Assembly (NCBI GenBank): GCA_001780035.1
Contig: MFEY01000004.1
Coordinates: forward strand, 81,405 to 145,404
Length of the DNA: 64,000 bases
Origin: Candidatus Doudnabacteria bacterium RIFCSPHIGHO2_12_FULL_48_16
GTDB lineage: Bacteria > Patescibacteriota > Doudnabacteria > UBA920 > O2-02-FULL-48-8
Direction: 5' to 3'
Shown here: one piece after another, positions 6,954 to 59,790 of the stretch
How positions within the stretch are numbered: position 1 is the stretch's first letter
Layout of the letters: every line of letters begins with the position of its first letter
Program-made: the position numbers and the translations under genes
The notes under the pieces: generated by a model
The model's input: the letters and a program-made list of their open reading frames with translations, nothing else
The model's database searches: none
Told to the model about the DNA's origin: nothing

Positions 6954-7116
6954 AAGTTTTCCCTTTGTGTTAAATTATTGCTCTCGACCTTTTCCCAGAG
7001 AGGAATGGGGGTGAAAAGGGCTGTAAAAACGAATCCTCTCGATCGGATTTTACAGCCCTTGTCATATATTACTACACTCATGAAATCGAATTATTTCAAA
7101 AAATAAAAACCGCCTA

Positions 7117-15443: not shown

Positions 15444-15454
15444 ATTGATTAAAT

Positions 15455-16828: not shown

Positions 16829-16831
16829 CTC

Positions 16832-18667: not shown

Positions 18668-18711
18668 GGGTATAAATGTCTAATATCAAATTTCTAATGA
18701 CTAACAAAATG

Positions 18712-19017
18712 TTAAATGCTTAATTCTTTAATTTTATTAGCTTTAGATTTCTTTATAATAGCAACAAATATTAAAGTTAATTCGTTTGTTTCTTTCATAA
18801 GCTCTGTCGCTCTATCTTTTAATTCGGGAGTCGTGGTTATGAGCATTCTTAACCAGTGCTTCGTTTCTTTGGATTCTTTTTTACAAATCCCTAATTTATG
18901 CTCGAAATCTTTTCTAGTCTCTGCACAATCTGCCTCACAATAATTCGCTCCCACGCTAGTGCCAGATTTCACCAGCTGCCCAATTATTGGCAAAGTAACA
19001 ACATCTTTTGGGATCAT
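18712..19017 (-). CDS. four-helix-bundle protein (23S rRNA-IVS / Avd-like family). The N-terminus has no canonical start codon.
   Basis: It contains SVGANYCEA...RKDF...ICKKESKETKHWL. Family-typical sequence (DLEERTARFGEEIIKFAR) continues in frame upstream to a stop at 19111-19113. There is no ATG, GTG or TTG in between. Confidence 0.55.
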   Translation of the reverse strand: MIPKDVVTLPIIGQLVKSGTSVGANYCEADCAETRKDFEHKLGICKKESKETKHWLRMLITTTPELKDRATELMKETNELTLIFVAIIKKSKANKIKELSI

Positions 19018-19121
19018 CCTCGCGAATTTTATAATTTCTTCTCCAAATCTCGCCGTTCTTTCTTCTAAATCATAAACTTTATCGTTAGAAATTTTATTAG
19101 AAATTAGGCATTAGTAATCAG

Positions 19122-19865
19122 TCATTCTCCCGGACTCAAGTCGAGATCGCCGATGCTTTTGATCTTGATAGGTGAAGCCGTATTCAGGTTGTAACTGTTA
19201 TACATTAATTCCACCAGCTCTTCGGTGCTTAAAACCAGGGATTTAAGACTCATACCTCCCATGGCGCCGGCAACCTGGCTGACCCGCTTCATGAGTTCTT
19301 CCCGGCTTTTGTCAAAATCAGTTTGTTTTACGGAAATCTCGCGAGCCGGGCTCAACAGATTCATGATTTTCGACATGAATCCGGTTTTCCCGCCGCCGGC
19401 GATCAAAGGTATGATGACGTAAAAAGTTTTATTCATAATGCTGGCAAACTCAATCAGCTTGCCGACGTATTCGATATATTCTTGAGTTTGCAAACGCAAC
19501 AGCTCATTGGTTTGCTGCTGCATCACCGATCTCAACTTGTCCAGATAGCTATGGATATCAAGCTTTCTTGACTGCATTAAGATCTGGATTGGAAATTCCA
19601 GCGAATTTAAAAAATTCTGGTAGGTCGCAATCAGGGCATTTTGTTCCTCGCCGCTCTTTAAAGAAAAATTGACTGACGAGACCACAAGCACCGCCCGCAG
19701 CGAACCATCCTTGAGGACCACAACGCCTTCCTTGATCTCTTTGATATCCAAATACGCCTGGGTCGATGCCGAAGGCTTGTTCCCCGTCATAGAACTGGAT
19801 TGCATCTCTTGCTGGTTCATATTAAGTGTTGTGAGCTGCGTGACCGACCAACTCTTCCTCTTCAT
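19122..19865 (-). CDS. hypothetical T4SS-associated protein (VirB4 N-terminal-domain-like)
   Basis: The motif YLDIKEIKEGVVVLKDGSLRAVLVVSSVNFSLKS...FLNSLEFPIQI resembles the VirB4/TraC N-terminal region. Confidence 0.3.
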   Translation of the reverse strand: MKRKSWSVTQLTTLNMNQQEMQSSSMTGNKPSASTQAYLDIKEIKEGVVVLKDGSLRAVLVVSSVNFSLKSGEEQNALIATYQNFLNSLEFPIQILMQSRKLDIHSYLDKLRSVMQQQTNELLRLQTQEYIEYVGKLIEFASIMNKTFYVIIPLIAGGGKTGFMSKIMNLLSPAREISVKQTDFDKSREELMKRVSQVAGAMGGMSLKSLVLSTEELVELMYNSYNLNTASPIKIKSIGDLDLSPGE

Positions 19866-20265
19866 GGACTTTTTGGTCGAGCAAATAGGCTAATTTTTTC
19901 AAGCGGCTCTCCGGAGCTTCGATAGTGGTTCGTAACTGCGGCTGTTCCTGTTGCTTGGCAACTTTTTTGATTGTGATGATCGGTTCGACCCGATGAAACA
20001 CCCGGACATGGGGTTTGGATAAAAAATTTATAAAAGCTCCGATAAAACCAACCATGGGCCGGCCGTTAAATTTAGCGAAAGCCAAGGCCAGGCCCAATAC
20101 GGCAAACGGGAAGGAAAAAAAGAAAAAGAATACTGAAATTTTTAAAACTGAATAAAATAAGAGGATGATCCCGCCGGTCAGCAATAAAATCAAGAATTGC
20201 TTGAGGGTCAACGGACCGATCAGTTTATCCTCGACATCGGTAAATTGAGGGATGGCATACTGCAT
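19822..20265 (-). CDS. small two-TM membrane protein, VirB3/PrgI-like candidate
   Basis: Two hydrophobic helices (FLILLLTGGIILLFYSVL and AVLGLALAFA) followed by a charged tail. It lies upstream of the VirB4-like gene. Confidence 0.35.
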   Translation of the reverse strand: MQYAIPQFTDVEDKLIGPLTLKQFLILLLTGGIILLFYSVLKISVFFFFFSFPFAVLGLALAFAKFNGRPMVGFIGAFINFLSKPHVRVFHRVEPIITIKKVAKQQEQPQLRTTIEAPESRLKKLAYLLDQKVHEEEELVGHAAHNT

Positions 20266-20292
20266 GAAATATTGAATATGAATTATGAACTA

Positions 20293-20655
20293 TTAAAGAT
20301 TTTTAATAGTTCCCATTAACATTGCGCCAATTTTTTTCGAAAGCGAACTGGCGTTTTCGTACTCAGGTTTAGATATTAATCCTTCAGCAAACGAAAACTC
20401 GATAAGGTATTCGGATTCTTTTAGTGACCCGAACGATATTAGTAAAAAATTTTTGTGACTTTTGTCGCTCATGCGGGCATAACCCTCAATGTAATTTAAA
20501 ACCACAGAAAGACTCGCTCGTCGTAATTGAGAAATTATCCCATATATCTCATTTTTCGGAAATTTACGGGTTAAGGCGTAAATAAAATGGGCAAAATTGT
20601 CCATTTTTTGCCGTAATTGCTGATGGAAAATCATATTTATTTTAGTTTCAAGCAT
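20293..20655 (-). CDS. four-helix-bundle protein (23S rRNA-IVS / Avd-like family)
   Basis: Roughly 120 aa with a four-helix-bundle pattern. Family assignment is by similarity to the other copies, and confidence is moderate. Confidence 0.55.
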   Translation of the reverse strand: MLETKINMIFHQQLRQKMDNFAHFIYALTRKFPKNEIYGIISQLRRASLSVVLNYIEGYARMSDKSHKNFLLISFGSLKESEYLIEFSFAEGLISKPEYENASSLSKKIGAMLMGTIKNL

Positions 20656-20722
20656 TTTGATTTATATTTCAAATTTCATCCTTTATACTTCAAACATTAT
20701 ACCATAAAGGGCAAGACTTATC

Positions 20723-20749
20723 AAAAAAGCCCGGACGGGCTTATTTTAT
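20723..20749 (-). terminator. Rho-independent terminator (bidirectional)
   Basis: GCCCG-ga-CGGGC flanked by an A6 run and a T run. It sits immediately after the PIN gene stop. Confidence 0.6.
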
Positions 20750-21181
20750 GAAGTTTGAGAGCCAATTTACCCACCCCTCGCCTTCATCCTCCCAAATGCT
20801 CCAGAATTCCGCCGGCCGGACAATCCGCACCCCATGATACTTTTCCAATTTCAACAGATGCAAATCCGACGTGATCAAATAGTCTGCGCCGCTTGCTACG
20901 GCTGACTCTAAAATTTTATCGTCCTCAGGATCTTCCACAATCCGCAATTTCTCGCCCGTTGCCACGGGTTGGACGACTTCGAAAAAATATTCCAGCTTTT
21001 TAAGATAACCTTCGTCCGAAATTTTTCTCCGGGCCAAAAATTTATTTTCATTCAAGGTTGCCCGATTGGCGTAAGCCATAATCTGGTTGGCGATCACCAA
21101 ATCCAAGATTCTGTTTGCATACCGGTAATAATCTTCCGAAGCATCAATCAGCACATTGGTATCAATCACGACTTTGAGCAT
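20741..21181 (-). CDS. PIN-domain nuclease (VapC-like)
   Basis: VIDTNVLID at the N-terminus. Acidic residues in DPEDDKILESA and YLITSD match the PIN catalytic arrangement. Confidence 0.7.
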   Translation of the reverse strand: MLKVVIDTNVLIDASEDYYRYANRILDLVIANQIMAYANRATLNENKFLARRKISDEGYLKKLEYFFEVVQPVATGEKLRIVEDPEDDKILESAVASGADYLITSDLHLLKLEKYHGVRIVRPAEFWSIWEDEGEGWVNWLSNFIK

Positions 21182-21312
21182 GAGTTAAAAATGACTAATT
21201 ACTAATTTCTAATGACAAATAAAATTTTAAATTAAAAATGTCTAATGGTTTAATCATTGAGACATTATATCATTTTATTAGAAATTTGTAATTGGAAATT
21301 TGACATTCCGAC

Positions 21313-22614
21313 TTATAGCCGTTCTATTTCCTTCCGCAAATCCGCCATGGCCTCAAACTCGGCTTGGGTCATTTCTCCGGCGGCACCAGAACCGACCACC
21401 TTTGAATTGCCGTGAGCCATGTATGATTTGAATAAAGGGCTTTGTTCAAAAGCCGTGACCGCATAGTAAGGCAAAACATTGTTGGCTCGGGCCAAATTAG
21501 AAATTAGAGATTTTAAATTGGAAATTTGCGACTGCAAACTTCCTTGGCGCAAAAAACTCAAGTCAAGTTTTTTTAGATCATCGATAGTTTGAATCACTGA
21601 CATACGCGGACTGGACGCGGAATGCGGTGGACGTGTCTCGTCTTTGCGAGCGGCCATTTGACTAAGCACTGCTGTCGATGGCCGCGAAGCAATCTCTGAT
21701 TTGTGCCCGGGCAATTCGACGGTCTTGACTTCCCGTTGTATTTCTTGCGGAGTCATGGATATGGCCGGTTGAGGCTTGGGAGTAAATTTAACCGTCCCGG
21801 CTTGCATTTTGGCCTTAAATTCCTCCAAGGGAGCGCCGTGCGGAATTGGTGGCTTGCTTATGATCGGAAAAGCAATCTTCGGGCTAGTGGGCACGGGAGG
21901 GGTTGGGCGCAGAATCGACGACTGGGGGGTTCTTTCCACCACCGGGATATTCTTGGGATATTTAAGGTGATTATACACAGTTAGAATATTGGTGAGGAGT
22001 TGCCGGTCAGCCATGCTTAAGGTTTTCACATTGGGACTTGAATAAAAATACTGAGTCATCTCATAAGTCCCGGTTCTCAGTTTGGCCGGATCGGAATAGC
22101 TAATATAATCTTTCAGCCAATTGGCTATCGAGCCGATGACCTTGTCGCCCGATTTAAGGATCAAGGCTTGCGGGCCCAAAATTTCCTGATTACGGATTAA
22201 AGCGTCAATGAACATCTGACGTTCTCCGGCATCAGGGCCAATGCCCAATTCAAACATTCGCAGATACCGCTCCAAGCAATAGACGATGTCAATTTGCTTT
22301 TTGATTGACGGAATCACATTGCGCACCAAAATCCGCTCCTTGATTTTTTTGGTCTGATTTTGCAAAGACTGCCATTCCAGGGTTGATAAAACCACAAGCA
22401 GCCGGGCCGAAATATTTTGGTTCCGGATTGCTTTGCTGTTCTCTAAGAGTTTGGCCAACAAATCATAAAATTCCCTGGCCAAACCTGGCTCATAATTATA
22501 CATCGGATCCGCGGCAATTTTTTCGATCTGAATTATAACTTGCTGATTATTCAACTCATCCGGGGTCAGATGGTCGAGATCCTCTACTTGTATATTTTCT
22601 ATTTGAATGGTCAT
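21313..22614 (-). CDS. hypothetical protein (T4SS locus)
   Basis: A 433-aa ORF. Its stop overlaps the upstream gene start by 4 nt (ATGA), suggesting translational coupling. Confidence 0.35.
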   Translation of the reverse strand: MTIQIENIQVEDLDHLTPDELNNQQVIIQIEKIAADPMYNYEPGLAREFYDLLAKLLENSKAIRNQNISARLLVVLSTLEWQSLQNQTKKIKERILVRNVIPSIKKQIDIVYCLERYLRMFELGIGPDAGERQMFIDALIRNQEILGPQALILKSGDKVIGSIANWLKDYISYSDPAKLRTGTYEMTQYFYSSPNVKTLSMADRQLLTNILTVYNHLKYPKNIPVVERTPQSSILRPTPPVPTSPKIAFPIISKPPIPHGAPLEEFKAKMQAGTVKFTPKPQPAISMTPQEIQREVKTVELPGHKSEIASRPSTAVLSQMAARKDETRPPHSASSPRMSVIQTIDDLKKLDLSFLRQGSLQSQISNLKSLISNLARANNVLPYYAVTAFEQSPLFKSYMAHGNSKVVGSGAAGEMTQAEFEAMADLRKEIERL

Positions 22615-25600
22615 GGTCTGATTGGGTTACCTTCCCTGTCGATAGGGTTACCTCGGGCGTCAGTAAGAAAAGGTGCGGCTGGCGGCGCGGGCGGCTGAGG
22701 AACTTGAGCGCGCTGTTGTTGGCCGCCTCCTCCACCATCTACATTCTGTGCGCCTTTGGCTTGAGCGGCTTTCTTCATTACAAAAGAATAATTAAAATCA
22801 ACCGCTCTGTCACCATCCACGAAAACTTCTCTTTTGGCCGGGTCAGACTCGTAATTCAGATAAAGTTTCATGGTGGATAGCCCGCCTCTTTGGTTCTGGG
22901 GCAATCCCAATTTTTCCGCATACAACACTTGGGCCTGATCTCTCTGGTGAGTCCACAAATTCTGAACTTTTCTCAATTCATCGGAATTGTTAATGATCAG
23001 CCGGCCGTCATGCGTAACTTTCGTGGCCAGTTGGGTATCCTTAACCCGTGGTTGAATGTTCTGCACGCGATCCAGAGTTACCGGATCATTCATCAAATTA
23101 TTCTGCTGATCATAAAAGGCCTTCGAGGCGTCTGTGATATCGGTGGCACCCCAGTAAGTATTTCTGATTTCTTTACCATCGGTTCGAACATCAAACATCA
23201 GCTTGCCGTTAGCATCCCGCTTCTGCTCAGGCTCGGTAAACATCAGCTCGCCGGTATTCGCATTCCGCTTCTGCTGCCCGGTCGCCTCATCCATTATTGG
23301 TTTGACCGTCGTTGGATCCATGATCGGAGTTTTGCTCGTAATGATTTTTCCATCTGCATCCAACTCACCCATAATCGGCGCCAGACCGTGGGGAGCCATA
23401 GTGACCAAATCATTGACCTTTTTCTTGCTAAACTCACCTTTGGCATAATCGGCCTGATGAGTATTATCAAGTGTCTTGATCTTATGGCCAAAGCCGTTGT
23501 CTCTTTCCGGCCCGACTTCCTTCATGCCCTCTTCCCACATGCTGGTATCTGGATTGAAGAAAGTGTGTCCCAAGTATTCCGGATGATTGGTATTTTTGCC
23601 CATATCCTCCATATCTTCTCCGATAAACCGCATGGCCTGCTCGCCTTTTCCCAAATAAGTCATTAATAACCGGTGAACGGTGTCCGGGCTATTAATGGCC
23701 ACTGACTGGGTGCCGTCGGGGTGCGTGATTTTCTCTCCATATTTTTCAGTAAAATGCTTCATTCTCATTAAATCATCAGTAAAGCCGTTGGCCGCGACTG
23801 CCTTCATTATTGCCAACCGGGTCGTTTCCCCTTCATGGCCGCCGATACCTTCGGCTTCGACCGCCAGCTGCATCAACTGCTCTTTCTTCATATCGGTCAA
23901 AAACTTCAGCTTTTCATTTTCCGCTCGTCGTTCGACCAATTGCGCATGCGGTAGGGTCGTGCCGGTCCATAAGCGTTCGGCGATTTGTTGGCCATAAGCG
24001 GTGGCGAGCTCTGTTTGATGGTGAGCCAGTTCTTCGCCTCTTTTCGAAAAACCCTTATACGTGCCGACTGGATTAAGCGCGGCATAAGCAAATCGGGCCA
24101 GTTTGCTCGGCTTCTTGCCGCCTTCCGTATGCAGCAATTTGCCCGTGGCTTCGTTATATTTTCGGCCGGCAAAACGGCCCATCCCGTGGCCAATCCCCTT
24201 TAGGGCTGCTGTAGCCGTTCCTTGCACCCCATGCACAATCATCTCCCCGCCCACCATGCCGGCTTCCTTGGCCACCAACAATGACGCGGCCAGAAATGCG
24301 CATAAAATCCAAAATTTAAACGAGGTGTTCTCCGCTCCGGTAATCGCAAATCGCGGGTCGTTGGCGACCAGGATGGTCAACCGGATCATAAACATGGCCA
24401 CCGGCGCCCAGATTAAATATTTAACAAAATGGCTCCACCACTCTTCCGAATATTTTTCCGTAGCCGGCAAAATCCGGGCCACATAAGCCACCGGCGAAAA
24501 AATGATCAGGACATAGAGCCCGACCAGCCGGATAATAAACATCGCGGCCAAAGCCAGATAAACCACCAGCCCCACGATCGCGTAAGCGATCTTGCCAAGA
24601 CCCAGGGCCAAACCCTCCTGCCAGCTGACATTGCCGCTGAATAACTCCTTAAAATCCAGCACGCTGAAAATCGCGCCCATGACCCCGTCGAGCCCATTGC
24701 CGCGGAAAATCAAAGCCAACAAATTGACCGCCTTCATGATCTCGACCGCGATAACCTGGCTAAAGTTAACCAAAATTGCCATGATGACCAGGTGGCCGAG
24801 CAAGTGGCGATAATCATAACTTTCGATATGCAAAATCGCAGCCAGAGCAATCACAATCAAAATGATAATAAAGAACATGTTGCAGATATCGCGAACGATT
24901 GCCCAACCGATATTGACCGCGGCAGGCATGGTCGAGATATCCAGGGCCGCTCCGGATGCATACGAGAACACTTCCGCCGCCAAGGCCGTCAAAATCGAAA
25001 GAGCGGAGGCCACGACGGACAAAACCATATTTAAGATCCAGCCAATGAAATCCCCACCGGCTGAAGCGCCCACGATCTTACCAACGTTCGCTTTCTGTTT
25101 GGTTGCCCATTGATCTTGAGTAAATGTAGTCCCTAAGACCAATTTAGTTTGAAAATTAAGAGCCAAGGTGCTTCGGGCGAGCTTGCCGTCTTTATTCCAA
25201 AATCCATTGGTGTCTACTTGGACAGTGCCGTCGACCACCTCACAAATTGTCGTGGGACGTTGGGCGTTAATCGGTCCGGTTAACCCTTGTCCCAACGCGG
25301 CTTTGAGATCCCCACCGGTTACTATGCTGACCAATCTGGACAATATATCGCAATTGGCCTTGCTGGCCGGGTTATTGGCAGCGTCAAAATCAGTTTTTGT
25401 AACTTTTACTGCCGGCGTCTTGGCGGACGGCGTCCAGGTTCCGCCCGCTGCAATGCAACCCTTTTGCCAACGATCAGGACCCGTACCGACCGGAGCCACA
25501 GGGGATGTTGCACCAGTGCAGGTCCCGTCGTCCGAAACCTGGGCAAACGCCAAATTCGCCAATGCAAAATTAGCGAGCAGGACAAGTGCTAGCAGTTGGA

Positions 25601-25631
25601 TTATTCGGTTATGTTTCGGGTTCGAGGACAT
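22611..25631 (-). CDS. VirB6/TrbL-like polytopic membrane protein with a large C-terminal hydrophilic domain
   Basis: Signal peptide, a block of at least six TM helices (about residues 200-480), then a hydrophilic tail of about 500 aa ending in a G- and P-rich segment. It sits in a VirB4 neighbourhood. Confidence 0.45.
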   Translation of the reverse strand: MSSNPKHNRIIQLLALVLLANFALANLAFAQVSDDGTCTGATSPVAPVGTGPDRWQKGCIAAGGTWTPSAKTPAVKVTKTDFDAANNPASKANCDILSRLVSIVTGGDLKAALGQGLTGPINAQRPTTICEVVDGTVQVDTNGFWNKDGKLARSTLALNFQTKLVLGTTFTQDQWATKQKANVGKIVGASAGGDFIGWILNMVLSVVASALSILTALAAEVFSYASGAALDISTMPAAVNIGWAIVRDICNMFFIIILIVIALAAILHIESYDYRHLLGHLVIMAILVNFSQVIAVEIMKAVNLLALIFRGNGLDGVMGAIFSVLDFKELFSGNVSWQEGLALGLGKIAYAIVGLVVYLALAAMFIIRLVGLYVLIIFSPVAYVARILPATEKYSEEWWSHFVKYLIWAPVAMFMIRLTILVANDPRFAITGAENTSFKFWILCAFLAASLLVAKEAGMVGGEMIVHGVQGTATAALKGIGHGMGRFAGRKYNEATGKLLHTEGGKKPSKLARFAYAALNPVGTYKGFSKRGEELAHHQTELATAYGQQIAERLWTGTTLPHAQLVERRAENEKLKFLTDMKKEQLMQLAVEAEGIGGHEGETTRLAIMKAVAANGFTDDLMRMKHFTEKYGEKITHPDGTQSVAINSPDTVHRLLMTYLGKGEQAMRFIGEDMEDMGKNTNHPEYLGHTFFNPDTSMWEEGMKEVGPERDNGFGHKIKTLDNTHQADYAKGEFSKKKVNDLVTMAPHGLAPIMGELDADGKIITSKTPIMDPTTVKPIMDEATGQQKRNANTGELMFTEPEQKRDANGKLMFDVRTDGKEIRNTYWGATDITDASKAFYDQQNNLMNDPVTLDRVQNIQPRVKDTQLATKVTHDGRLIINNSDELRKVQNLWTHQRDQAQVLYAEKLGLPQNQRGGLSTMKLYLNYESDPAKREVFVDGDRAVDFNYSFVMKKAAQAKGAQNVDGGGGGQQQRAQVPQPPAPPAAPFLTDARGNPIDREGNPIRP

Positions 25632-25708
25632 GGGGGTTTAAAATTTCAAATGTCAAATTACAAATGTCAAACAAAATACTTAGTTTTGAAATTTGTTATT
25701 TGTCATTT

Positions 25709-27820
25709 CTAACATGGCGTATTAGTGAGGTAACACGCGTCGGCCGGATCACCCGGGTCAATCGGGGCGGAATAATGGACTCCCGGATCACCGGATGGCG
25801 GCATCGGCAGCCAGGCCGGGATATTGGTTTCGCTGACGCTGCCCAAGATATCAACTCCAGAATTATCGGGATAGGAGAACACGTCGGCAGAGAAGCCGTT
25901 GCATTGACTGGTATGGTAAGTGACCGTCAGCCCGGCGCCTTCTCCCCGCAGGGCCCAGGCGACGCGTTTGACGATTTCAAATCCCCCGCAATAGCTGTTC
26001 AGGGCAATGCCTTTGGATTCGACGTATCGTTTGACATTGGCGACCAGCTCCGTGCGATCGGCGGACTTGCAGGCAATGTTGTCCGGCTCATCGACGCAAG
26101 TCGGACCGTCTTCGTCGCCTTCATCGCCCGGATCAATAATGTCCGGCGGAACCACCTCCCCGGCCGCCTGGACATTGGGGTTGTCGCACCGGCCAATGGC
26201 TGCTTTGGTGTCCTTCAAATATTGAAGCATATCCTGGTTGCTCTGAATCAGAGCACCCAAGCCGCCGCCGCCGTTGCCGCGCAGGCGGGAGAGATCCATG
26301 TCCTGATCCTTCTGGATCGATTGGCTCATTTTCGACAGGAAATGCTGATAGCGGCTGATCGCAATTTCCATATTGTCGAAATAATTGCTCCGGTAATTTT
26401 GAATATTGTTAAGCAGGTTATCGATCGCCGAATCCGCCAGACCGGCGCGGCGGGCCCAGATATCAGCATCAGACTTGTTTACAAAATTGTCGCCGTCCGG
26501 CTTGATATGATCTTTGTGCGTCAAAATAAAGTCGTTAAATTCGGCCAGCGCGGCTACGGCCTGATCCAGGGATTGGCAGATCGGCGTAAAATAAGGCGAG
26601 GTTTTGACTTCGCTGGATTTTTTGCAATTCGGCGCCGTGCCGCCGTGGTAACAAACGTCGGAGATAGTATTGAGCTGATTGTCGCCGTCGACGTCCTGGC
26701 CCTCCGGAATATTGTCACCATCCAGATCAAGATCCCGAATCAGCGGCGCCACGCCGTTATCGGCTTGATAGCCGCTGCCGGATTCGTTAAAGGTCCCGCC
26801 GGATTTGGTGAGGTTTAATTTATTAAAAATGAAACTGCCCAGCAGCGACCCGATGGTGCTGTAGAGATTGTCATGGAGGCCAAAGTTATCCTGGAAGACG
26901 GTCTGAATCGCATTCGTGGCAAAATTATGGATGAACGCGGATGGATTCTGAATGGCGGACTGAGCAATCCCGGTGGAATCAACTTTCCACTCCCCGCCGG
27001 CGAGGATGCAATCTGACAGATTGGTAATCGGCTGCTTGGGATAATAAAAAGTCTCAGCTTCAGGATCGGACGGATCCGACGAATAGATTTCCGGATAGGA
27101 GAACTGGACGTTGGTGCAAATGCGCGGCACAATCCCGGTCGGGGTCGAGCGGTCGTTTTTCAACCCCTGGCTGTTGGCAGTTTCCGACCCGGCCGCTTTC
27201 TCCGAATCGGCGACCATGCGGCCAAACTCCCCATACAACTCTTGCTGGGTAAAATCCGGCGGACTGGAAAAATATGCCCGCGCCGCGGCAAAATAATACT
27301 TATCTTCCACGAACGCCCCATTTGGATTTAAAATCCGGTTGGAGTTGATGCCGCCCCGCTCGTAATAAAATTTATCGATTTTTTGCCGCAGCGCAGCCAT
27401 CAACGGCTTGCTGTTGCCCGAAGAGTCCGTAACCGTGGCGCGGTTATTGATGTCGCGGGCCAGCAATCCATAAATGGCGCGCAGATCGGGATCCGAAACA
27501 TTGTCGTATATATATTTATTCAAATAATATCCGGACAAGACTTTGTCGTAAGCCAGATAATCCTTAATCCGATATTTATCAATCAGTTTGTCGACAAATC
27601 TAGTCAGATATTTGTTAGCATAGCTGATGGCGATTCGCTGCGCGGCCGCCAAGCCGATGTCTTTGAAAACATCATACCAGTTGGCCACCTCGGTATTGAA
27701 TGTAAAGTCGCCGACGCCGAATAGCGCTTCAGCTGGCTTGGGTTTGATCACGAAAAACTGCCCGCCAACCAGTGAAATTAGGACCAAGCCTATGGCAATT
27801 TTTCGAAAAATCATTTTCAT
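25709..27820 (-). CDS. large secreted protein with a Cys-rich C-terminus
   Basis: Signal peptide (IAIGLVLISLVGG), acidic DxDGD-type motifs and 14 Cys residues in the last 150 aa. Confidence 0.4.
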   Translation of the reverse strand: MKMIFRKIAIGLVLISLVGGQFFVIKPKPAEALFGVGDFTFNTEVANWYDVFKDIGLAAAQRIAISYANKYLTRFVDKLIDKYRIKDYLAYDKVLSGYYLNKYIYDNVSDPDLRAIYGLLARDINNRATVTDSSGNSKPLMAALRQKIDKFYYERGGINSNRILNPNGAFVEDKYYFAAARAYFSSPPDFTQQELYGEFGRMVADSEKAAGSETANSQGLKNDRSTPTGIVPRICTNVQFSYPEIYSSDPSDPEAETFYYPKQPITNLSDCILAGGEWKVDSTGIAQSAIQNPSAFIHNFATNAIQTVFQDNFGLHDNLYSTIGSLLGSFIFNKLNLTKSGGTFNESGSGYQADNGVAPLIRDLDLDGDNIPEGQDVDGDNQLNTISDVCYHGGTAPNCKKSSEVKTSPYFTPICQSLDQAVAALAEFNDFILTHKDHIKPDGDNFVNKSDADIWARRAGLADSAIDNLLNNIQNYRSNYFDNMEIAISRYQHFLSKMSQSIQKDQDMDLSRLRGNGGGGLGALIQSNQDMLQYLKDTKAAIGRCDNPNVQAAGEVVPPDIIDPGDEGDEDGPTCVDEPDNIACKSADRTELVANVKRYVESKGIALNSYCGGFEIVKRVAWALRGEGAGLTVTYHTSQCNGFSADVFSYPDNSGVDILGSVSETNIPAWLPMPPSGDPGVHYSAPIDPGDPADACYLTNTPC

Positions 27821-45910: not shown

Positions 45911-48900
45911 CTATTCTAATTTTAGAGATATCTTCTTGCCATCCACGTCAATTTCCGTCCCGCCGGATTCTTTCACCATCTTCGAAATATACTTCTTTTT
46001 GGTATCAATCAACTCCATTGCTGCGGCTAAATCCGAGTCATCTGTATTATAACTCAATGTTACCGGTTGCCCAACTTTAAACCCGAGCTTTTTGCGCATT
46101 TCCTGCACCGCGCGGGTAAGTTCCGCTGCCAGGCCTTCCTGCTTGAGTTCTGAAGTAATGTTTAGATCAAATTCCAGCTTGTCCCCTGCTTTGACGGCTT
46201 TGACGTTCAATTCGTCCGCGAGAATTTCTTCAAACTCTTGGGCCAGTTGCTTGCCTGAATAACCAAACGAATTCAACGGCTGGCGCAGTTTGATGTTCGC
46301 CGCCTTGCGCAAAGAGTGCCCCTGCTCCACCAGATCCCGCACCATTTGCATTTGATTCAAGACTGCTGTTTGATCTGGGGTCAATTCCAATTGCTCCGGC
46401 CATTTGGCCAAGTGAACCGATGGCACTTCCAGACGGCGGTTAAGATTTTGATATATCAGTTCTCCGAGATAAGGCATGGTCGGGGCGATAACTTTGGCCA
46501 ATGTCAGCAGGGCGTGGCGCAAGGTGCCAAAAAAATGAGCATCTTTGCGGCCGCGACTTCTGCGCAGATACCAAGTTGATAATTCATTGATGTAATTTTC
46601 AATCGCGCGCGTGGCTTTAACCGTATTGTAACCATCGAGCTGATCGGTAACTTCATTCACAAGCTCTTGAGTTTTGGCCACGATCCAAAGATCAAGAACT
46701 GATTTGAAATTTGAAATTTGAAATTTGAAATTTTTCTCAGGTTCCCAACCCGCCTCGTTGGCATAAGTCACGAAGTAATTAAACACATTCCATAGGATCA
46801 AAATATTCTTGCGGTAAATTATGCCCAATTCCCGTTCGCTGAAATTCAAATCCTCGGCCTGCATGACCGGCGAATTCATCAGGTAAAACCGCAGGGCGTC
46901 GACCCCGTATTTTTCGATCATCAGCCACGGATCCGGATAATTGCGCTTGGATTTGCTCATCTTCGCCCCATCCTCAGCCAGGATCGTGCCAGTGGTCAGG
47001 ATATTTTCAAATGGCGCAGAATTGAACAAAATCTGGGCCATGACATGCATGACGTAAAACCAGGCCCGGGTTTGGGGCAAGTATTCCACGACAAACTGCC
47101 CGGGAAACCGGCTCTTAAAAATTTCTCCTTGGGCGAACGGATAGTGATATTCGGCAAACGGCATGGAACCGGCTTCAAACCAGGAGTCAAAAATTTCGCT
47201 GATGCGATGGGCCGGCTGGCCACATTCTTTGCATTTGATCACAACTTCATCAATATATGGCCGATGCAAATCCAGAATGCTGACATCAATCTCATAAATC
47301 TTATCAGTGTGGTTATTCGGATTCTCCTGTTCCGAGCCATAATGCTCCAACAACACCCATAAGGGGTCGCCGTGACCCACGACCACTATGCGTTTGCCTT
47401 CGTATTTTTGATTAATTTCATTCACGAACGCCACCATTCGCTGTTGCACCTGGGTCAGCGTTTCGCCGCCTTCCGGCGCTTCTTTCCAAATATCATGATG
47501 CGCAATATAATCATAAAATTCTGAGACCGGCCGATTGTCATAAATGCCGGTGTCGTATTCACGCAAGCGGGCATCTGTCATTACCGGAGCCCCTAAGTGC
47601 TTACCGATAATTTCGGCGGTGGATTTGGTGCGTAAAAAATCCGAGGAAAAAATTAAATCGACGCCACCTCTGTCTTTGAGGCCTTGGGTGACTTTTTCAG
47701 CATTCTCGAATCCCTTGTCCGTCAAAGGGTATTTATCCGTTTCGAGTTTAGTGCTACTGACCCGCAATGTATTTTTGGTGGATTGTCCATGGCGCACAAA
47801 ATAAAACGTATTTCGGTTCAGACCAAGATCTTTGATGGATCCCACTACATTCACATGTCCGACTTCGCACTTCCAGACCGGAATCGGATTGCCCCAGTAG
47901 CGGTTGCGGGAAATATTCCAGTCCGGCGCGGCTTCCACGGATTTCTGGTAGCGGCCATGCTTAAGATGGTCAGGATACCAGTTCATCTGCGCCTCGTTGG
48001 TGCGCAACAAATCCGGTTTCACTTTCTGCACATTTACAAACCAGGCCGGAATGGCATTGTAGAACAGCGCCGTGCCGCAACGCCAGCAGTGCGGATACGA
48101 GTGCTGGTGCTGCTGTTTGGCAAACATCAATCCCCTGGCTTCCAAATCTTTCTTGATTGTTTTTTCCGCCGCTTTGAAATACTGACCCCGGATCAAACTT
48201 GGCGCGTTATCGTTAAAAATGCCTTTTTCGTCCAAAAGCGGGACAACCGGCAGGCCTTCTTTAAGCCCCAAATTGTAATCGTCTTCGCCATAAACCACAG
48301 CCGTGTGCACCACGCCGGTGCCATCTTCAATATTAACAAAATCCGCGGCGTAGACTTTGTAAGATTTGTCCGAGTGAACCGCCGGCACGTCGAACAGGGG
48401 CTCATAGGAGAGACCGACAAGTTCTGAACCCTTAAACGGAAAATCGAGAATCGAGAATCGAGAATCGGGGTGCAATTTCATGAGATCGTTCACCCGATCT
48501 TTAGCCAAGAGATAAACCTCCTGATTCATTTTTACCTTCACATAATCAATATCCTTACCAACGGCGAGAGCTACGTTACCGGGTAGAGTCCATGGTGTTG
48601 TGGTCCAAGCCAATATAAAAGTATTAACGAATTTCGGATTACGAATTGCGAATTTTACGGTCACCGCTTCTTCCGTCACATCCCGGTAGCTATTATCCAT
48701 AGCAACCTCAAAGTTGGACACCGGCGTTTCGCAGCGCGGGCAATACAGCAGCACCTTGCGGCCTTCGTAAATCAAACCCTGCTCGTAAACCTGTTTGAAC
48801 GCCCACCAAACGGATTCCATATAATCCCGATCCATGGTCTTGTAGGAATTGTCGAACTCCACCCAGCGCGCGATCCGCCGGATGGTTTTGCGCCACTCGG

Positions 48901-49285
48901 CGACATACATCAGCACCATACTGCGGCAGGTTTCGTTGAATTTCTTGATGCCCAACTGTTCGATCTGCTTTTTGCCGGAAATTTTGAGTTCGCGTTCGAC
49001 AATTTCTTCGATCGGCAGGCCGTGGCAATCCCAGCCCCAGCGCCGCCGGACAAACCGGCCCTGCATCGTCTGATAGCGCGGGATTGCGTCTTTGACGACC
49101 GACGGCAAAATGCTACCGTAGTGCGGCAGGCCGGTGGCAAACGGTGGGCCATCATAAAAAGTATAAGGTTTCCCTTGTTTGGTTTGCTCCAGGGATTTCT
49201 GAAAAATCTGGTTGTCCTCCCAAAACTTCAGTATCTCTTCTTCCAGTTTCGGAAAATCTGGCTTTGGTTGTATTGGGTTAAACAT
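45911..49285 (-). CDS. ileS: isoleucyl-tRNA synthetase, carrying an inserted histidine-phosphatase (PGM-like) domain and several short-repeat insertions
   Basis: HIGH-type motif PPFATGLPHYGSIL, KMSKS, and an anticodon-binding C-terminus. The segment of about 176 aa from FYFVRHGQS to VVVGHGDP (residues about 493-668) matches GpmB/SixA-type histidine phosphatases. Confidence 0.9.
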   Translation of the reverse strand: MFNPIQPKPDFPKLEEEILKFWEDNQIFQKSLEQTKQGKPYTFYDGPPFATGLPHYGSILPSVVKDAIPRYQTMQGRFVRRRWGWDCHGLPIEEIVERELKISGKKQIEQLGIKKFNETCRSMVLMYVAEWRKTIRRIARWVEFDNSYKTMDRDYMESVWWAFKQVYEQGLIYEGRKVLLYCPRCETPVSNFEVAMDNSYRDVTEEAVTVKFAIRNPKFVNTFILAWTTTPWTLPGNVALAVGKDIDYVKVKMNQEVYLLAKDRVNDLMKLHPDSRFSILDFPFKGSELVGLSYEPLFDVPAVHSDKSYKVYAADFVNIEDGTGVVHTAVVYGEDDYNLGLKEGLPVVPLLDEKGIFNDNAPSLIRGQYFKAAEKTIKKDLEARGLMFAKQQHQHSYPHCWRCGTALFYNAIPAWFVNVQKVKPDLLRTNEAQMNWYPDHLKHGRYQKSVEAAPDWNISRNRYWGNPIPVWKCEVGHVNVVGSIKDLGLNRNTFYFVRHGQSTKNTLRVSSTKLETDKYPLTDKGFENAEKVTQGLKDRGGVDLIFSSDFLRTKSTAEIIGKHLGAPVMTDARLREYDTGIYDNRPVSEFYDYIAHHDIWKEAPEGGETLTQVQQRMVAFVNEINQKYEGKRIVVVGHGDPLWVLLEHYGSEQENPNNHTDKIYEIDVSILDLHRPYIDEVVIKCKECGQPAHRISEIFDSWFEAGSMPFAEYHYPFAQGEIFKSRFPGQFVVEYLPQTRAWFYVMHVMAQILFNSAPFENILTTGTILAEDGAKMSKSKRNYPDPWLMIEKYGVDALRFYLMNSPVMQAEDLNFSERELGIIYRKNILILWNVFNYFVTYANEAGWEPEKNFKFQISNFKSVLDLWIVAKTQELVNEVTDQLDGYNTVKATRAIENYINELSTWYLRRSRGRKDAHFFGTLRHALLTLAKVIAPTMPYLGELIYQNLNRRLEVPSVHLAKWPEQLELTPDQTAVLNQMQMVRDLVEQGHSLRKAANIKLRQPLNSFGYSGKQLAQEFEEILADELNVKAVKAGDKLEFDLNITSELKQEGLAAELTRAVQEMRKKLGFKVGQPVTLSYNTDDSDLAAAMELIDTKKKYISKMVKESGGTEIDVDGKKISLKLE

Positions 49286-52685: not shown

Positions 52686-52792
52686 TATAACTCCCCCGCG
52701 AACTCTCAGTTGACGCACCCCCTCTTACATTAAGAGGGGGTGGAGTAGCGGCTGCTCTCCCCTTAATGTAAGGGGAGGGTGGGAGGGGTTAT
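52686..52792. repeat. TIR-flanked double-hairpin element, family A copy 2
   Basis: Same architecture as 49300-49410. It lies between the argS start and smpB. Confidence 0.7.
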
Positions 52793-52803: not shown

Positions 52804-53253
52804 ATGCCTTCCCTCGCCAACAACCGCAAAGCTTTCCATGATTACTCGATCGAATCCACGCTCGAGGCCGGCTTGGTCTTGGCCGGCCATGAAGTCAAAA
52901 GCATCCGCAACGGGCAGGTCTCGCTCAATGGCGCCTATGTCACGATCCGCCTGGGCGAAGCCTGGCTGCGCAATGCGTATATTGGCAAATACAAACAAGC
53001 CTCGGGCCTGGAGGGCATCGATGAATCCCGCGAACGAAAGCTGCTCCTCAATAAACACGAGATCATTAAACTGCAGGATCTGCTCAAATCCAAAGGCTTA
53101 ACTCTGGTGCCGCTGGAAATTTACACATCCAAGGGGCGGCTGAAATTAAAAATCGGCGTCGGAAGAGGCAAAAAGCAATTCGACAAGCGCGAATCGATAA
53201 AGAAGAAAGAACTTAAAAGAGGCTTGGATAGAAAGATGAGGACGCGGGTATAA
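52804..53253 (+). CDS. smpB: SsrA-binding protein SmpB
   Basis: NRKAFHDYSIE...AGLVLAGHEVKSIRNGQVSLNGAYV. Confidence 0.9.
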   Translation: MPSLANNRKAFHDYSIESTLEAGLVLAGHEVKSIRNGQVSLNGAYVTIRLGEAWLRNAYIGKYKQASGLEGIDESRERKLLLNKHEIIKLQDLLKSKGLTLVPLEIYTSKGRLKLKIGVGRGKKQFDKRESIKKKELKRGLDRKMRTRV

Positions 53254-53727
53254 CTACCTCTCTGTCGGCTTCGCCGACATCTCTCCTGGAAGGAGAGATG
53301 AACTGCAGGTTAATTAAATATATGAAACTGCTTGAAAATTTAATTTTGGGTTCCCGGAGTTTAAGAAAAAACCAAACGCCTTGGGAAAATAAACTTTGGT
53401 ATAATCTCAGAGCCAAAAGATTTAAAGGATACCGTTTCCGAAGACAATTTGTTATTGGTTACTATATAGTTGACTTTTGCTGCTTTGAAAAGAAACTAAT
53501 TATAGAATTAGATGGGGGCCAACACAACGAAGAACAAACTCAACTAAATGATAAAGAAAGAACCGAATTTCTGAAATCACAAGGCTTCAAAGTAATAAGA
53601 TTTTGGAACAATGATATTCAAAAAAATCTCCCGGAAGTTTTAGAAACTATATTAGATAACTTGAAATAAAAAAATCCCCTCCCCTTCCAGGGGAGGGTGG
53701 CGCGAAGCGCCGGGTGGGGTAGTTATT
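53250..53727 (+). mobile_element. TIR-bounded element of about 478 bp carrying a DUF559 endonuclease gene (family B head, gene, family C tail)
   Basis: TATAACTACCTCTCTG (left) and GGGGTAGTTAT (right) are inverted repeats. A gene-less B+C version sits at 54316-54429. The element's first bases overlap the smpB stop codon. Confidence 0.5.
53322..53669 (+). CDS. DUF559 endonuclease-domain protein (Vsr/restriction-endonuclease-like fold)
   Basis: LRKNQTPWENKLWYNLRAKRFKGYRFRRQFVIGYYIVDFCC...IELDGGQHNEE. An alternative start lies at 53298, inside the repeat. Confidence 0.65.
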   Translation: MKLLENLILGSRSLRKNQTPWENKLWYNLRAKRFKGYRFRRQFVIGYYIVDFCCFEKKLIIELDGGQHNEEQTQLNDKERTEFLKSQGFKVIRFWNNDIQKNLPEVLETILDNLK

Positions 53728-53730
53728 ATT

Positions 53731-53757
53731 CTGGTGGAGCTGGGGAGAATTGCACTC
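53731..53757. repeat. 27-bp exact direct repeat of the tmRNA 3' end (the second copy, 53886-53912, is part of ssrA)
   Basis: CTGGTGGAGCTGGGGAGAATTGCACTC occurs identically twice, 128 bp apart. Confidence 0.8.
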
Positions 53758-53886
53758 GTTCGCGCTTATGCGCTCACCTCGGGGCAGCGCCGAAAGCTAT
53801 TAATACGCTTTCGTCGACGCTCGACTTCGGCTGATGCCTCGTCTCGCTTCTGCCCGGAGTGCAATCAATGTGCTTTATTAAATTCC

Positions 53887-54271
53887 TGGTGGAGCTGGGG
53901 AGAATTGCACTCCCGTCCAAAAATTTTTGGCAAACACGTCTACAAGCTTAGACCGCTTTATGGTGTCCCCCAAGCAATAGAAGCGGACCAAAGCTGCTTG
54001 AGGTGAGCTCTAAGTGTCTTTTGGCTGTCGAGCACCGGCCAAAATGAGTCCGGATAATATAACACCTGTGATCCGCGCACAGACTTTACGGAGCAGATGG
54101 GTTATCGCTTAATTAAGCAACAGCCAGAGCAGGAGAGAATGCAAAAGCATTCTTAATTCTGCTTACCAATGAATTGGCATTTATGATTTGCCTTATTTTT
54201 TTAACCGAGAAATTAGGCTAATCGGACTTGCGGTATCTGTCAAAGAACTCTTGTCGAAGCTTAGCAGCCCC
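53887..54271 (-). ncRNA. ssrA: tmRNA (ssrA)
   Basis: Minus-strand 5' end GGGGCUGCUAAGCUUCGACAAGAG and 3' end GGACGGGAGUGCAAUUCUCCCCAGCUCCACCA (T-arm plus acceptor with a G3-U pair). An internal tag-like ORF ends ...SPALAVA-UAA. It is adjacent to smpB. Confidence 0.75.
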
Positions 54272-54281
54272 TCGTCAAAGC

Positions 54282-54310
54282 ATTTTAGCATAATATAAGA
54301 GTATTTTCAA
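54282..54310 (-). promoter_or_regulatory. candidate ssrA promoter TTGAAA-17-TAAAAT
   Basis: Located about 10 nt upstream of the mature tmRNA 5' end. Confidence 0.35.
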
Positions 54311-54315
54311 GCTTT

Positions 54316-54429
54316 TTAATTACCTCTCTGTCGGCTTCGCCGACATCTCTCCTGGAAGGAGAGAATAAACTGCTGATTTGCCCTCCCCTTCCAGGGGAAG
54401 GTGCCGCGAAGCGGCGGGAGGGTAGTTAC
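54316..54429. repeat. gene-less B+C double-hairpin element (a MITE-like derivative of the 53250-53727 element)
   Basis: The family B hairpins (GTCGGCttcgGCCGAC, TCTCTCCtggaaGGAGAGA) and the family C hairpins (CCCTCCCCTtccAGGGGAAGG, GCCGCGAAGCGGC) are directly joined, flanked by ...TTAATTACCTC and GGTAGTTAC. Confidence 0.65.
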
Positions 54430-54483
54430 TCTTTACAAAAACTGTATTTTCCTCTATAATTACTGCGTATTAAACATAAACCG

Positions 54484-55687: not shown

Positions 55688-55813
55688 TATAACTCCCCCG
55701 CTGACTCCTTTATGACGCACCCCCTCTTATATTAAGAGGGGGTTTTAAAAAACCTGTCTTTCCTCCCCTTAAAATAAGGGGAGGTGGCGCGTTAGCGCCG
55801 GAGGGGTTAATAT
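55688..55813. repeat. TIR-flanked double-hairpin element, family A variant (loops TAT/AAAA, extra GCGCGTTAGCGCC hairpin). It doubles as the rplT terminator.
   Basis: CCCCCTCTTAtatTAAGAGGGGG is followed by TTTTAAAAAA. Confidence 0.65.
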
Positions 55814-59306: not shown

Positions 59307-59790
59307 TATAACTCCCCCGCTAACCCTCAGCTGAGGCACCCCCTCTTACATTAAGAGGGGGTGAACTGCAGATTAATTCTTTGGGCAGTATTCTAAGATT
59401 TTGTCGTATATCCCGTCGATATTTTCTATTACCTCATTATTCCAAAATCTTAATTCTCTAATATCGTTAGCTAATAAATAAGCCGTTCTTTCCTGATCAT
59501 ATTCTTTTTGTTCATCAGCGTGCTGACCTCCATCTAACTCAATGGCTAACCTCAATTCGGGACAATAAAAATCGAGAATATAATACCCGACGCTATATTG
59601 CCTTAAAAATTTATAGTCATTGCATTGTTTATTTCTTAGTACCTTCCAAAGTAACGATTCACAATCAGTTTGATTTTTTCTTAACTGCTGTCTTCGTGAT
59701 TTAATTTTCGGGTTGTTATATATTAGCTTCATCTTTGCGTTAGATGGCAGTTAACCCTCCCTTAATGTAAGGGAGGGTTAGGGTGGGTTA
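59307..59790. mobile_element. Family A element split by a DUF559 gene: a roughly 484-bp putative full-length copy of the family A double-hairpin element
   Basis: The left half is TATAACTCCCCCGC...GCACCCCCTCTTAcatTAAGAGGGGGT (59307-59362). The DUF559 gene lies at 59373-59732. The right half is AACCCTCCCTTAatgTAAGGGAGGGTTAGGGTGGGTTAT (59751-59790). Confidence 0.5.
59373..59732 (-). CDS. DUF559 endonuclease-domain protein
   Basis: LRKNQTDCESLLWKVLRNKQCNDYKFLRQYSVGYYILDFYC...IELDGGQHADEQ. It is a paralog of 53322-53669. Confidence 0.65.
   Translation of the reverse strand: MKLIYNNPKIKSRRQQLRKNQTDCESLLWKVLRNKQCNDYKFLRQYSVGYYILDFYCPELRLAIELDGGQHADEQKEYDQERTAYLLANDIRELRFWNNEVIENIDGIYDKILEYCPKN

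Follow-up and report, generated by a model that had tools for sequence, protein, structure and literature searches.

A gene-less 155-bp unit at a duplicated tmRNA 3′ end in a Doudnabacteria genome: a putative relic of an integrative element

Introduction

Why does an intact tmRNA gene in a Candidatus Doudnabacteria genome have, a short way beyond its end, a second exact copy of its own 3′ end? In the literature, integration into tDNA is defined by a direct gene-end repeat lying beyond an intact gene. An initial annotation of this locus had offered two readings of the duplication: an island was lost and left an att scar, or a neighbouring hairpin or DUF559 element targets the site. We have followed up both by examining the gene, the repeat and the DNA that it encloses, by comparing the locus with those of relatives and by sampling tmRNA genes elsewhere. 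A decayed relic of an integrative element appears to us the most probable origin, and several other explanations have to be weighed against it.

Results

The tmRNA gene and its setting

The window is the whole 64-kb stretch of DNA that was analysed. The features on which the argument draws are the following.

52804-53253, plus strand: smpB (Pfam PF01668; ORF list)
53251-53730, plus strand: DUF559 cassette, adjacent to the att-type unit and outside it (repeats; Pfam PF04480)
53251-53298: hairpin A, part of the DUF559 cassette
53298-53669, plus strand: DUF559 ORF (PF04480, E=6e-42)
53677-53730: hairpin B, inverted relative to A, part of the DUF559 cassette
53668-53697, minus strand: first terminator-like site downstream of the tmRNA gene, CCCTCCCCTGGAAGGGGAGGG then a T-run, inside hairpin B (consensus scan)
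53731-53757, minus strand: distal copy of the repeat, an attR-like displaced fragment (exact match; sequence reading)
53758-53885, minus strand: spacer, 128 bp, gene-less, unique, 54% GC, with several hairpins (comparison of the window with fetched loci)
53856-53865, plus strand: 10-nt inverted copy of the T-arm segment GGAGTGCAAT in the spacer (2 copies in the window versus 0.12 expected)
53886-53912, minus strand: proximal copy of the repeat, attL-like (exact match; placed in the tRNA-like domain by Rfam alignment)
53887-54271, minus strand: tmRNA gene (ssrA), standard one-piece (ARAGORN; Rfam RF00023)
54282-54310, minus strand: predicted tmRNA promoter TTGAAA-17-TAAAAT, with TG ahead of the -10 hexamer (consensus scan, 10/12 matches)
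54317-54364 and 54381-54433, plus strand: ORF-less hairpin pair A′ and B′, outside the att-type unit

The 385-nt tmRNA gene that the initial annotation had read on the minus strand, from 54271 to 53887, is borne out by both programs. It is the only tmRNA call of ARAGORN, which also gave the tag ANSLVSRIKNAFAFSPALAVA*, and Rfam RF00023 matches it over the full length of the model (positions 1-374; 118.3 bits, E=1e-45) with coordinates that agree with those of ARAGORN; ends, tag and prediction hold. Relatives have -35 and -10 elements equivalent to those of the predicted promoter, at the same distance from GGGG as here. The gene smpB, which had been described as next to the tmRNA gene, is indeed near, but it is not immediately adjacent: the two are convergent, and 633 bp separate smpB from the tmRNA 3′ end. 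Read along the plus strand, the order is argS (minus), smpB (plus), hairpin A, the DUF559 ORF (plus), hairpin B, the distal repeat, the 128-bp spacer, the tmRNA gene (minus), its promoter, A′B′ and infC (plus). The locus is also present in a Candidatus Doudnabacteria MAG (Patescibacteria/CPR; GCA_001777705.1, contig MFEU01000011.1).

Two other gene architectures were tried and rejected. The permuted (two-piece) tmRNA model RF04321 scored 25.7 bits, below its gathering score of 47, and the standard model fits over its full length; the sub-threshold match is explained by the duplicated T-arm and acceptor. An interruption by an intron was also rejected, as the gene is contiguous and no intron family of Rfam matched even at E<=10.

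The direct repeat

The 27-mer GAGTGCAATTCTCCCCAGCTCCACCAG has exactly two exact copies in the window, both on the minus strand. No further copy was found in the 64 kb at up to 3 mismatches, nor any in 100 shuffles, and the 3 kb around the gene contain no degenerate extra copies of the tmRNA ends at up to 4-5 mismatches. The initial annotation had spoken of the last 27 nt of the gene as being repeated exactly. The exact 27-bp repeat is there, but it spans tmRNA positions -26 to +1, that is, the last 26 nt and one flanking G after CCA. Placed on the Rfam alignment, the block begins with the final 3 nt of the T-stem 5′ strand, takes in the complete T-loop (TGCAATT) and continues through the 3′ strands of the T-stem and the acceptor to ACCA and a single nt beyond the gene. 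The distance of 128 bp between the copies had been given correctly (53758-53885).

The distal copy lies 128 bp downstream (3′) of the gene, in the same orientation. It is preceded by ACGAG, which permits only 3 of the 5 T-stem pairs, so it is not a functional tRNA-like end by itself. The two copies are 100% identical and the native one therefore cannot be told from sequence. A generic repeat, found at unrelated places, would have deprived the duplication of its meaning; outside the locus, the core occurs only as the genuine tmRNA 3′ end of related bacteria, and all seven matches of a metagenome scan with the 24-nt core were ordinary single-copy tmRNA 3′ ends.

The 128-bp spacer

The ~20 nt of the spacer nearest to the tmRNA gene are AT-rich and the remainder is GC-rich. 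The ORF list holds no credible ORF within its 128 bp, and the sole ORF that overlaps the distal fragment (53734-54006, plus strand) is a spurious antisense frame, called as a gene in no assembly. There is no other copy of the spacer in the 64-kb window or in any fetched locus, and no Rfam family falls on it, even at E<=10. Its predicted fold has a free energy of -54.8 kcal/mol (z = -2.96 versus shuffles). The 10-nt length of the inverted T-arm match was reached by 2 of 200 shuffles.

We rejected a transposon or MITE with a target-site duplication: the spacer is single-copy in the 64 kb and across all loci, and is a member of neither hairpin family dispersed through the window. Moreover, its sole inverted match is set back 20 nt from the edge of the spacer, and the pairing partner of this match is the repeat rather than the opposite end of the insert.

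Assembly and strain comparison

At least 8 contigs, which come from independent assemblies and samples, show one and the same repeat-spacer-repeat arrangement, and the 27-bp repeat is shorter than any assembly k-mer; an assembly artefact is thereby excluded. The same contigs, at least 8 from one population, showed no presence/absence polymorphism at the locus. We defined the empty-site junction as GGACGGGAGTGCAATTCTCCCCAGCTCCACCAGAATAATAAC, ...GGACGGGAGTGCAATTCTCCCCAGCTCCACCAGAATAATAACTACC and the circle (attP) junction as GCGCGAACGAGTGCAATTCTCCCCAGCTCCACCAGGAATTTAAT, ...GCGCATAAGCGCGAACGAGTGCAATTCTCCCCAGCTCCACCAGGAATTTAATAAAGC, and neither variant occurs among these strain contigs. A difference between strains in the presence of a GIY-YIG gene was traced to differing gene calls.

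Relatives and local rearrangement

We compared 17 Doudnabacteria-type smpB/ssrA/infC loci, the window included, and the window alone has a second copy of the tmRNA 3′ end. In the closest other species (L099; SmpB 90%, IF3 87%), the 3′-end sequence is identical and in single copy, and neither the spacer nor DUF559 is present. The 3′ end is likewise single in L100, L086, L087 and 12 further loci. The minimal convergent state is that of L086, where CCA is followed by 6 nt, one bidirectional terminator and the smpB stop; in the other Doudnabacteria-type loci, CCA is directly followed by a terminator or by a different hairpin, and the trailer predicted for the window (see below) is found in none of them. 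Since L099 and the 15 other loci have a single 3′ end, the comparison of sequences places the 155-bp insertion within the lineage or species of the window. An island between the repeats, for which the initial annotation had suggested looking in related genomes, was found in none of them; the relatives represent empty sites.

In 13 of the 17 loci, smpB, ssrA and infC share one strand; the remaining four, namely the window, L006, L086 and L087, have ssrA inverted in place. This recurrent in-place flipping of ssrA is one of the more interesting leads in its own right.

The duplication might be the by-product of a local rearrangement made without an integrase, be it the ssrA inversion, the insertion of a hairpin or DUF559 element or the repair of a break, and it would then have survived only through regenerating an intact tmRNA gene. 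The ~1.3-kb interval is indeed very dynamic, as it differs from that of L099 by the in-place inversion of ssrA, the insertion of the DUF559 cassette and that of the hairpin pair. Moreover, the 10-nt inverted T-arm copy in the spacer could be the trace of a fold-back or template switch, an imperfect similarity runs a few nt past both repeat copies (GGAATTTAATAA versus GAATAATAA), and an analogous duplication is found at the other end of the gene in L013 (see below). However, L006, L086 and L087 are flipped and none of the three has the repeat, which rules out the flip as its source. The spacer is not rearranged native DNA either, since its local alignments with 17 native intergenic segments of the relatives and the window, local or orthologous, are not significant after correction for multiple tests. 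The repeat is bounded by the T-loop and by the end of the gene, like repeats that integrases have made elsewhere, and a random repair duplication does not predict such bounds. Moreover, unique spacers enclosed by exact direct repeats at close range are, apart from this one, very rare in these genomes. We consider an origin by local rearrangement unlikely.

Integrases, donors and short units at other tmRNA genes

No tyrosine integrase (PF00589) and no resolvase family was found in the spacer or in window positions 1-59 kb, the part of the contig searched for the integrase that the initial annotation had proposed to look for. The 27-mer, its 21-mer core and two spacer substrings gave zero matches against viral_contigs; the whole repeat-spacer-repeat unit matched phages at chance level only (E=0.6, tail genes) and no plasmid. 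There was no attP-bearing donor element in the viral, phage, plasmid and JGI metagenome collections and no intact island at the tmRNA site in any relative. Bearing on a descent from an ICE, IME or prophage, no spacer homologue was found in any collection searched.

How often tmRNA 3′ ends are repeated elsewhere was assessed on 48 tmRNA genes, identified by ARAGORN over 87 loci from SmpB and core-sequence scans, with ~6 kb available for each. An extra copy of the 3′ end is present in 10 of the 48, clearly direct and downstream in nine; L071, one of the ten, has two 14-mers on both strands. In L023, L030, L044, L049, L051 and L061, a copy runs from within the T-loop (-16 to -20) to a point 0 to +10 beyond the gene; in the remaining repeat-bearing loci, copies start further upstream or are short matches at the very end of the gene. 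The spacers span 100 bp to 4.3 kb: 100 bp in L030, 179 and 184 bp in two Paenibacillus, 407 bp in Cohnella, then 0.9-4.3 kb. The two ~4-kb repeat-bounded Cohnella segments contain no integrases, and their ORFs are cargo. The sample is thus without an integrase-bearing positive control.

A close counterpart of the window is L030 (CPR, Moraniibacteriota): its repeat of 21 bp encloses a spacer of 100 bp without genes, AT-rich on the proximal side and with a GC-rich hairpin on the distal side. In Paenibacillaceae, the ~180-bp spacers form one conserved family, on which no Rfam family falls in Paenibacillus, and in L049 two units stand in tandem. In Paenibacillus, the ~180-bp units keep their synteny and have diverged as fast as the flanking genes, a sequence pattern that suggests vertical inheritance rather than mobility; synteny between Paenibacillaceae species stops exactly at the distal repeat, as is typical of an integration hot spot. 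A mirror case at the 5′ end was met in L013, where a 32-bp exact repeat (13 nt upstream and the first 19 nt of the tmRNA) encloses a 72-bp GC-rich spacer. By analogy, this counterpart also fits integrative elements, since Islander counts a 5′ fragment upstream in 159 of 3,919 islands (PMC4383910). Short relics are thus common, with spacers of just 100-400 bp in several loci, including L030. That att-bounded relics of very small size seem to be in excess at tmRNA genes is another of the more interesting leads.

The 155-bp unit might instead be an integrative element in miniature that is not autonomous. It would form a circle of attP size, without genes, which could still be excised and integrated in trans by a tmRNA-specific integrase from a phage or from another part of the genome, and it would thus be the site-specific-recombinase counterpart of a MITE. 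Gene-less spacers about the size of an attP do recur (72 bp at the L013 5′ end, 100 bp in L030, 128 bp in the window and ~180 bp in Paenibacillaceae), about 5 of the 11 extra copies that lie within 6 kb have spacers shorter than 500 bp, the two repeat copies here have both stayed perfectly intact, and the spacer is predicted to be strongly structured. Against this, the spacer is single-copy in the window and absent from all other sequences searched, the strain contigs hold no empty-site or circle-junction variant, and the integrase search of window positions 1-59 kb was empty. In addition, the Paenibacillus units look vertically inherited and no sequence is common to the spacers of different lineages. 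Both the mobile circle and its supply of integrase from elsewhere appear quite unlikely to us. It is likewise quite unlikely that gene-less integrative mini-elements of 70-180 bp are a real class of attP-sized circles parasitising tmRNA-specific integrases in trans. Each would consist of a tmRNA gene-end copy and a structured arm, with the 155-bp unit of the window, the 121-bp unit of L030 and the 104-bp 5′-end unit of L013 as independent CPR members, and we take this composition and membership to be just as unlikely.

The 3′ trailer of the tmRNA transcript

On the minus strand, the consensus scan found no terminator-like site between 53887 and 53697, and the first one downstream of the gene is inside hairpin B. 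From the promoter and terminator scans, the tmRNA transcript would thus probably carry a structured 3′ trailer of ~215 nt, made up of the spacer and the distal repeat and ending at the hairpin B terminator. The predicted MFE structure joins the 10-nt inverted segment to the distal repeat in a stem; the tmRNA T-arm would be an equally possible partner for this segment.

The second copy could therefore have a function as RNA, if the trailer and the duplicated 3′ end guided 3′ processing, stabilised the precursor or served as an alternative acceptor or T-arm partner. Such a trailer should be transcribed, is predicted to fold well and would be complementary to the T-arm in its 5′ part. However, the T-stem of the distal copy is incomplete (3/5 pairs), the permuted-tmRNA model stays far from its gathering score (25.7 versus 47 bits), and the trailer occurs in no other Doudnabacteria-type locus, so that neither conservation nor covariation speaks for it; we regard a function of this kind as very improbable.

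The DUF559 cassette and the hairpin units

Hairpin A′ is 98% identical to A and B′ 90% identical to B, and the A′B′ pair (54317-54433) sits between the tmRNA promoter and the infC promoter. The hairpin units were found by head-motif searches. The head of hairpin B (GGTAGTTA) ends at 53725, so that the DUF559 element does stop close to the distal copy, as first annotated, but at 5 nt, or at 3-5 nt depending on the choice of end, rather than at 3 bp. DUF559 ORFs nested in hairpin pairs are a further lead of interest.

The initial annotation had suggested that the hairpin or DUF559 element targets this site, which would mean that the element recognises the tmRNA 3′-end sequence and that the distal copy is, or marks, its insertion site. 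The proximity of hairpin B speaks for it, but of the hairpin units in the window (at least 9), a single one is next to the repeat, and the rest stand at ordinary gene ends; the other family-1 pair (54317-54433) and the five family-2 units occupy ordinary intergenic sites with no tRNA-like end near, nor is there one near the second DUF559 cassette (59309-59785). Furthermore, the window has 3 tRNA genes, all without such a hairpin or DUF559 neighbour, no third repeat bounds the cassette, and the DUF559 cassette and gene are absent from the ssrA loci of all relatives. The suggestion found no support, and we attach hardly any likelihood to it.

Discussion

Our results favour the view that the 155-bp unit (the 128-bp spacer and one 27-bp repeat) is, as its anatomy and its likeness to known remnants suggest, rather probably a decayed, CIME-like, gene-less relic of a tmRNA-targeting integrative element. 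An integrative element would have recombined with the tmRNA gene in or beside the T-loop, its attP bearing a duplicate of the tmRNA 3′ end that reached from the T-loop to just beyond CCA. The gene would have been made whole again at integration by the proximal copy (attL), its former 3′ end being pushed downstream to become the distal copy (attR). The later loss of the integrase and of all cargo would then have left a gene-less, att-flanked relic, an extreme CIME-like remnant.

The evidence for the relic is the intact tmRNA gene, the exact and canonical repeat, the unique and foreign-looking spacer, and the empty sites in the relatives. Against it stands the outcome of the searches described above, as the data contained no integrase, no donor, no intact island in relatives and no strain polymorphism. 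For this reason, it is from the form of the locus that we infer a recombinase step, which of the copies was the original, and a former larger island between the two. Moreover, a remnant of just 128 bp requires a near-complete internal deletion that spared both att sites, and random deletion would not be expected to make spacers cluster at 100-400 bp, as they do in several lineages; both points count against a relic. Of the two readings in the initial annotation, the island lost with an att scar left behind is nevertheless the best supported: the position, the orientation, the configuration, the recurrence in 10 of 48 loci and the empty sites speak for it, and its loss itself is deduced from anatomy and analogy.

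If the relic reading is true, an integrative element that targets tmRNA has at some time entered a genome of the Doudnabacteria (CPR/Patescibacteria). To our knowledge, few such integrative elements have been documented in the tiny, streamlined genomes of CPR/Patescibacteria. It would also mean that near-total erosion of such elements is possible with both att sites intact. Short att-bounded relics of this kind could still serve as landing pads for new elements by accretion. Finders of the Islander type drop intervals shorter than 2 kb or without an integrase (PMC4383910), and thus relics like the 155-bp unit, together with the ~20% of tmRNA loci that have short-range repeats in our small sample, are invisible to them. 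The signature of tDNA integration is already known and our finding leaves the understanding of tmRNA and of integration unchanged.

Comparison with known systems

The criteria by which Islander recognises tDNA islands include an end fragment, its orientation and configuration, a CDS filter, a PF00589 integrase and a length of 2-200 kb (PMC4383910). At our locus, the target gene is intact (ARAGORN; Rfam full length, 118 bits), the 27-mer (-26 to +1) is an end fragment, both copies lie on the minus strand with the distal one 128 bp 3′ of the gene, as the orientation and configuration filters demand, and the fragment is intergenic with a spurious overlapping ORF, so that it passes the CDS filter. 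The locus departs from the class in its integrase, as the 128 bp hold no ORF and window positions 1-59 kb no PF00589 or resolvase, and in its length, with a spacer of 128 bp and a unit of 155 bp.

The same likeness and difference hold for the ssrA islands of Dehalococcoides, which have 20-bp repeats and insert in the T-loop (PMC3146451). Like these islands and those of Islander/TIGER (PMC4383910), our locus has an intact tmRNA gene followed downstream by a direct repeat of its 3′ end in the same orientation; here too the putative insertion point falls at the T-loop, as the block of identity starts 3 nt 5′ of it and ends at +1. The repeat from the T-loop to the gene end measures 20 bp in Dehalococcoides (PMC3146451) and 27 bp here. 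However, ssrA islands and tDNA islands are 2-200 kb long with an integrase or integration module by attL, whereas here there are 128 bp, no ORF and no integrase within 59 kb. The integrase-less ssrA islands of Dehalococcoides have been read as cis-mobilizable elements (PMC3146451).

The unit also resembles a CIME (PMC5704250) in that a pair of intact att-like repeats flanks it at a tDNA target and that genes for recombination or transfer are absent from it; its 128 bp without an ORF are consistent with the loss of integration and transfer genes by which CIMEs are recognised. In contrast, CIMEs have kilobases of cargo and a recognisable ICE or IME ancestry (PMC5704250), and here there are 128 bp, no recognisable ancestry and att sites that are putative. 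In our own sample, L030 and the Paenibacillus and Cohnella loci (17-21-bp repeats) share with the window a direct repeat from the T-loop to the gene end and a gene-less spacer of 100-400 bp; the Paenibacillaceae spacer, however, opens with a terminator and is kept across species, whereas that of the window is species-specific and without a terminator. Finally, T-loop group I introns and circularly permuted two-piece genes (PMC11915505) concern the same region, the T-loop and the 3′ tRNA-like half, but unlike those interrupted tmRNA genes the gene here is contiguous, standard and intron-free. Taken together, we file the 155-bp unit as working like an att-flanked relic, and not as a member of the island class proper.

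Orientation of ssrA and the flanking hairpin units

In four of the 17 Doudnabacteria-type smpB/ssrA loci, the ssrA cassette of about 0.5 kb is inverted in place between smpB and infC.

Flipped ssrA: window 53731-54316; loci L006, L086 and L087
Unflipped ssrA (comparison set): loci L007-L014, L085, L088, L090, L092, L099 and L100

The inversion seems to be recurrent among these loci because ssrA is unflipped in L099, the nearest relative of the window (SmpB 90%). The flipped segment of the window has hairpin units B (53677-53730) and A' (54317-54364) on either side, and these are inverted repeats with their heads facing inward. In one of the other flipped loci, L086, an exact 130-bp direct repeat with an 89-bp gap between its copies was also seen at 5033-5381; repetition within a coding sequence or an artefact of the assembly may lie behind it.

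Hairpin units also enclose, as inverted pairs, each of the two DUF559 paralogs of the window, which are 47% identical, and occur as "empty" pairs without an ORF.

53251-53730: DUF559 cassette 1, hairpin family 1 (TAAYTACC...)
59309-59785: DUF559 cassette 2, hairpin family 2 (TATAACTCCCCCGC...AAGAGGGGGT)
54317-54433, 52686-52778 and 55688-55784: ORF-less hairpin pairs of families 1 and 2

The empty pairs are located at other gene ends, with only about 15 nt between their units. Together, the DUF559 genes and hairpin pairs look like either a small mobile cassette accompanied by miniature derivatives, or the result of ORF insertion into terminator hairpins.

Structures at the tmRNA 3' end

The Rfam model tmRNA_permuted gave matches below its gathering score of 47 in the window (53726-53947, minus strand, 25.7 bits) and in L049, a Paenibacillus/Cohnella locus (6984-7132, 31.7 bits), both spanning the tmRNA 3' end and the downstream repeat. 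The duplicated T-arm and acceptor, rather than a two-piece tmRNA gene, probably account for the matches.

In three species, a homologous structured element starts at the first nucleotide past the tmRNA CCA and carries long terminal inverted repeats (TGAACCAYTCGC...GCGARTGGTTYA).

L010 6896-7000: post-CCA structured element
L013 7937-8040: post-CCA structured element
L099 1454-1558: post-CCA structured element

Apparent compensatory changes point to conservation of a trailer or terminator structure.

Other features of the window and its relatives

The window and the L096-L098 strains share 99.88% identity across 9.8 kb, and 10 substitutions relative to these strains are packed into 40 bp of smpB (52914-52953), a pattern that resembles a short tract of recombination or gene conversion. 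The isoleucyl-tRNA synthetase (45911-49285, minus strand, 1124 aa) contains a histidine-phosphatase domain (PF00300) between two tRNA-synt_1 segments, an insertion also present in the relative L100. A type IV secretion-like cluster (VirB4/TraG-like, PrgI, TraC-like) lies at about 15400-27800 alongside several large unannotated genes, and genes of the 23S_rRNA_IVP/bAvd family occur in at least four copies dispersed in the window (18.7, 20.3, 29.0 and about 40.4 kb). A PaaX_M/Cas2-like gene (8829-9389, plus strand) adjoins tRNA-Ser(gct) (8595-8685, minus strand), and its homologue in L013 (6569-7063), surrounded by three copies of a palindromic repeat of about 40 bp, neighbours the tmRNA gene, just upstream of a 32-bp repeat region. 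This association with tRNA-like genes may be a coincidence.

Repeated tmRNA ends in other genomes

Paenibacillus and Cohnella carry a conserved element of about 180 bp directly 3' of the tmRNA gene, in which a terminator and a GC-rich structured part are followed by a final repeat of 17-21 bp that copies the 3' end of the tmRNA.

L044 6989-7188; L061 6994-7194; L042; L051 8217-8438: the ~180-bp element
L049 7019-7445: the same element as two tandem copies

The element matched no family in Rfam, and its distal repeat is the exact end point of inter-species synteny. In L013 (7437-7572), a 72-bp GC-rich hairpin lies between the copies of an exact 32-bp direct repeat made up of tmRNA nucleotides 1-19 and the 13 nt upstream of them, a 5'-end counterpart of the 3'-end feature of the window. 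Finally, in L030 (4466-4607), from Candidatus Moraniibacteriota, the tmRNA 3' end from the T-loop to +1 is present as two direct 21-bp copies with a gene-less 100-bp spacer between them. The architecture is that seen in the window, here in another CPR lineage.
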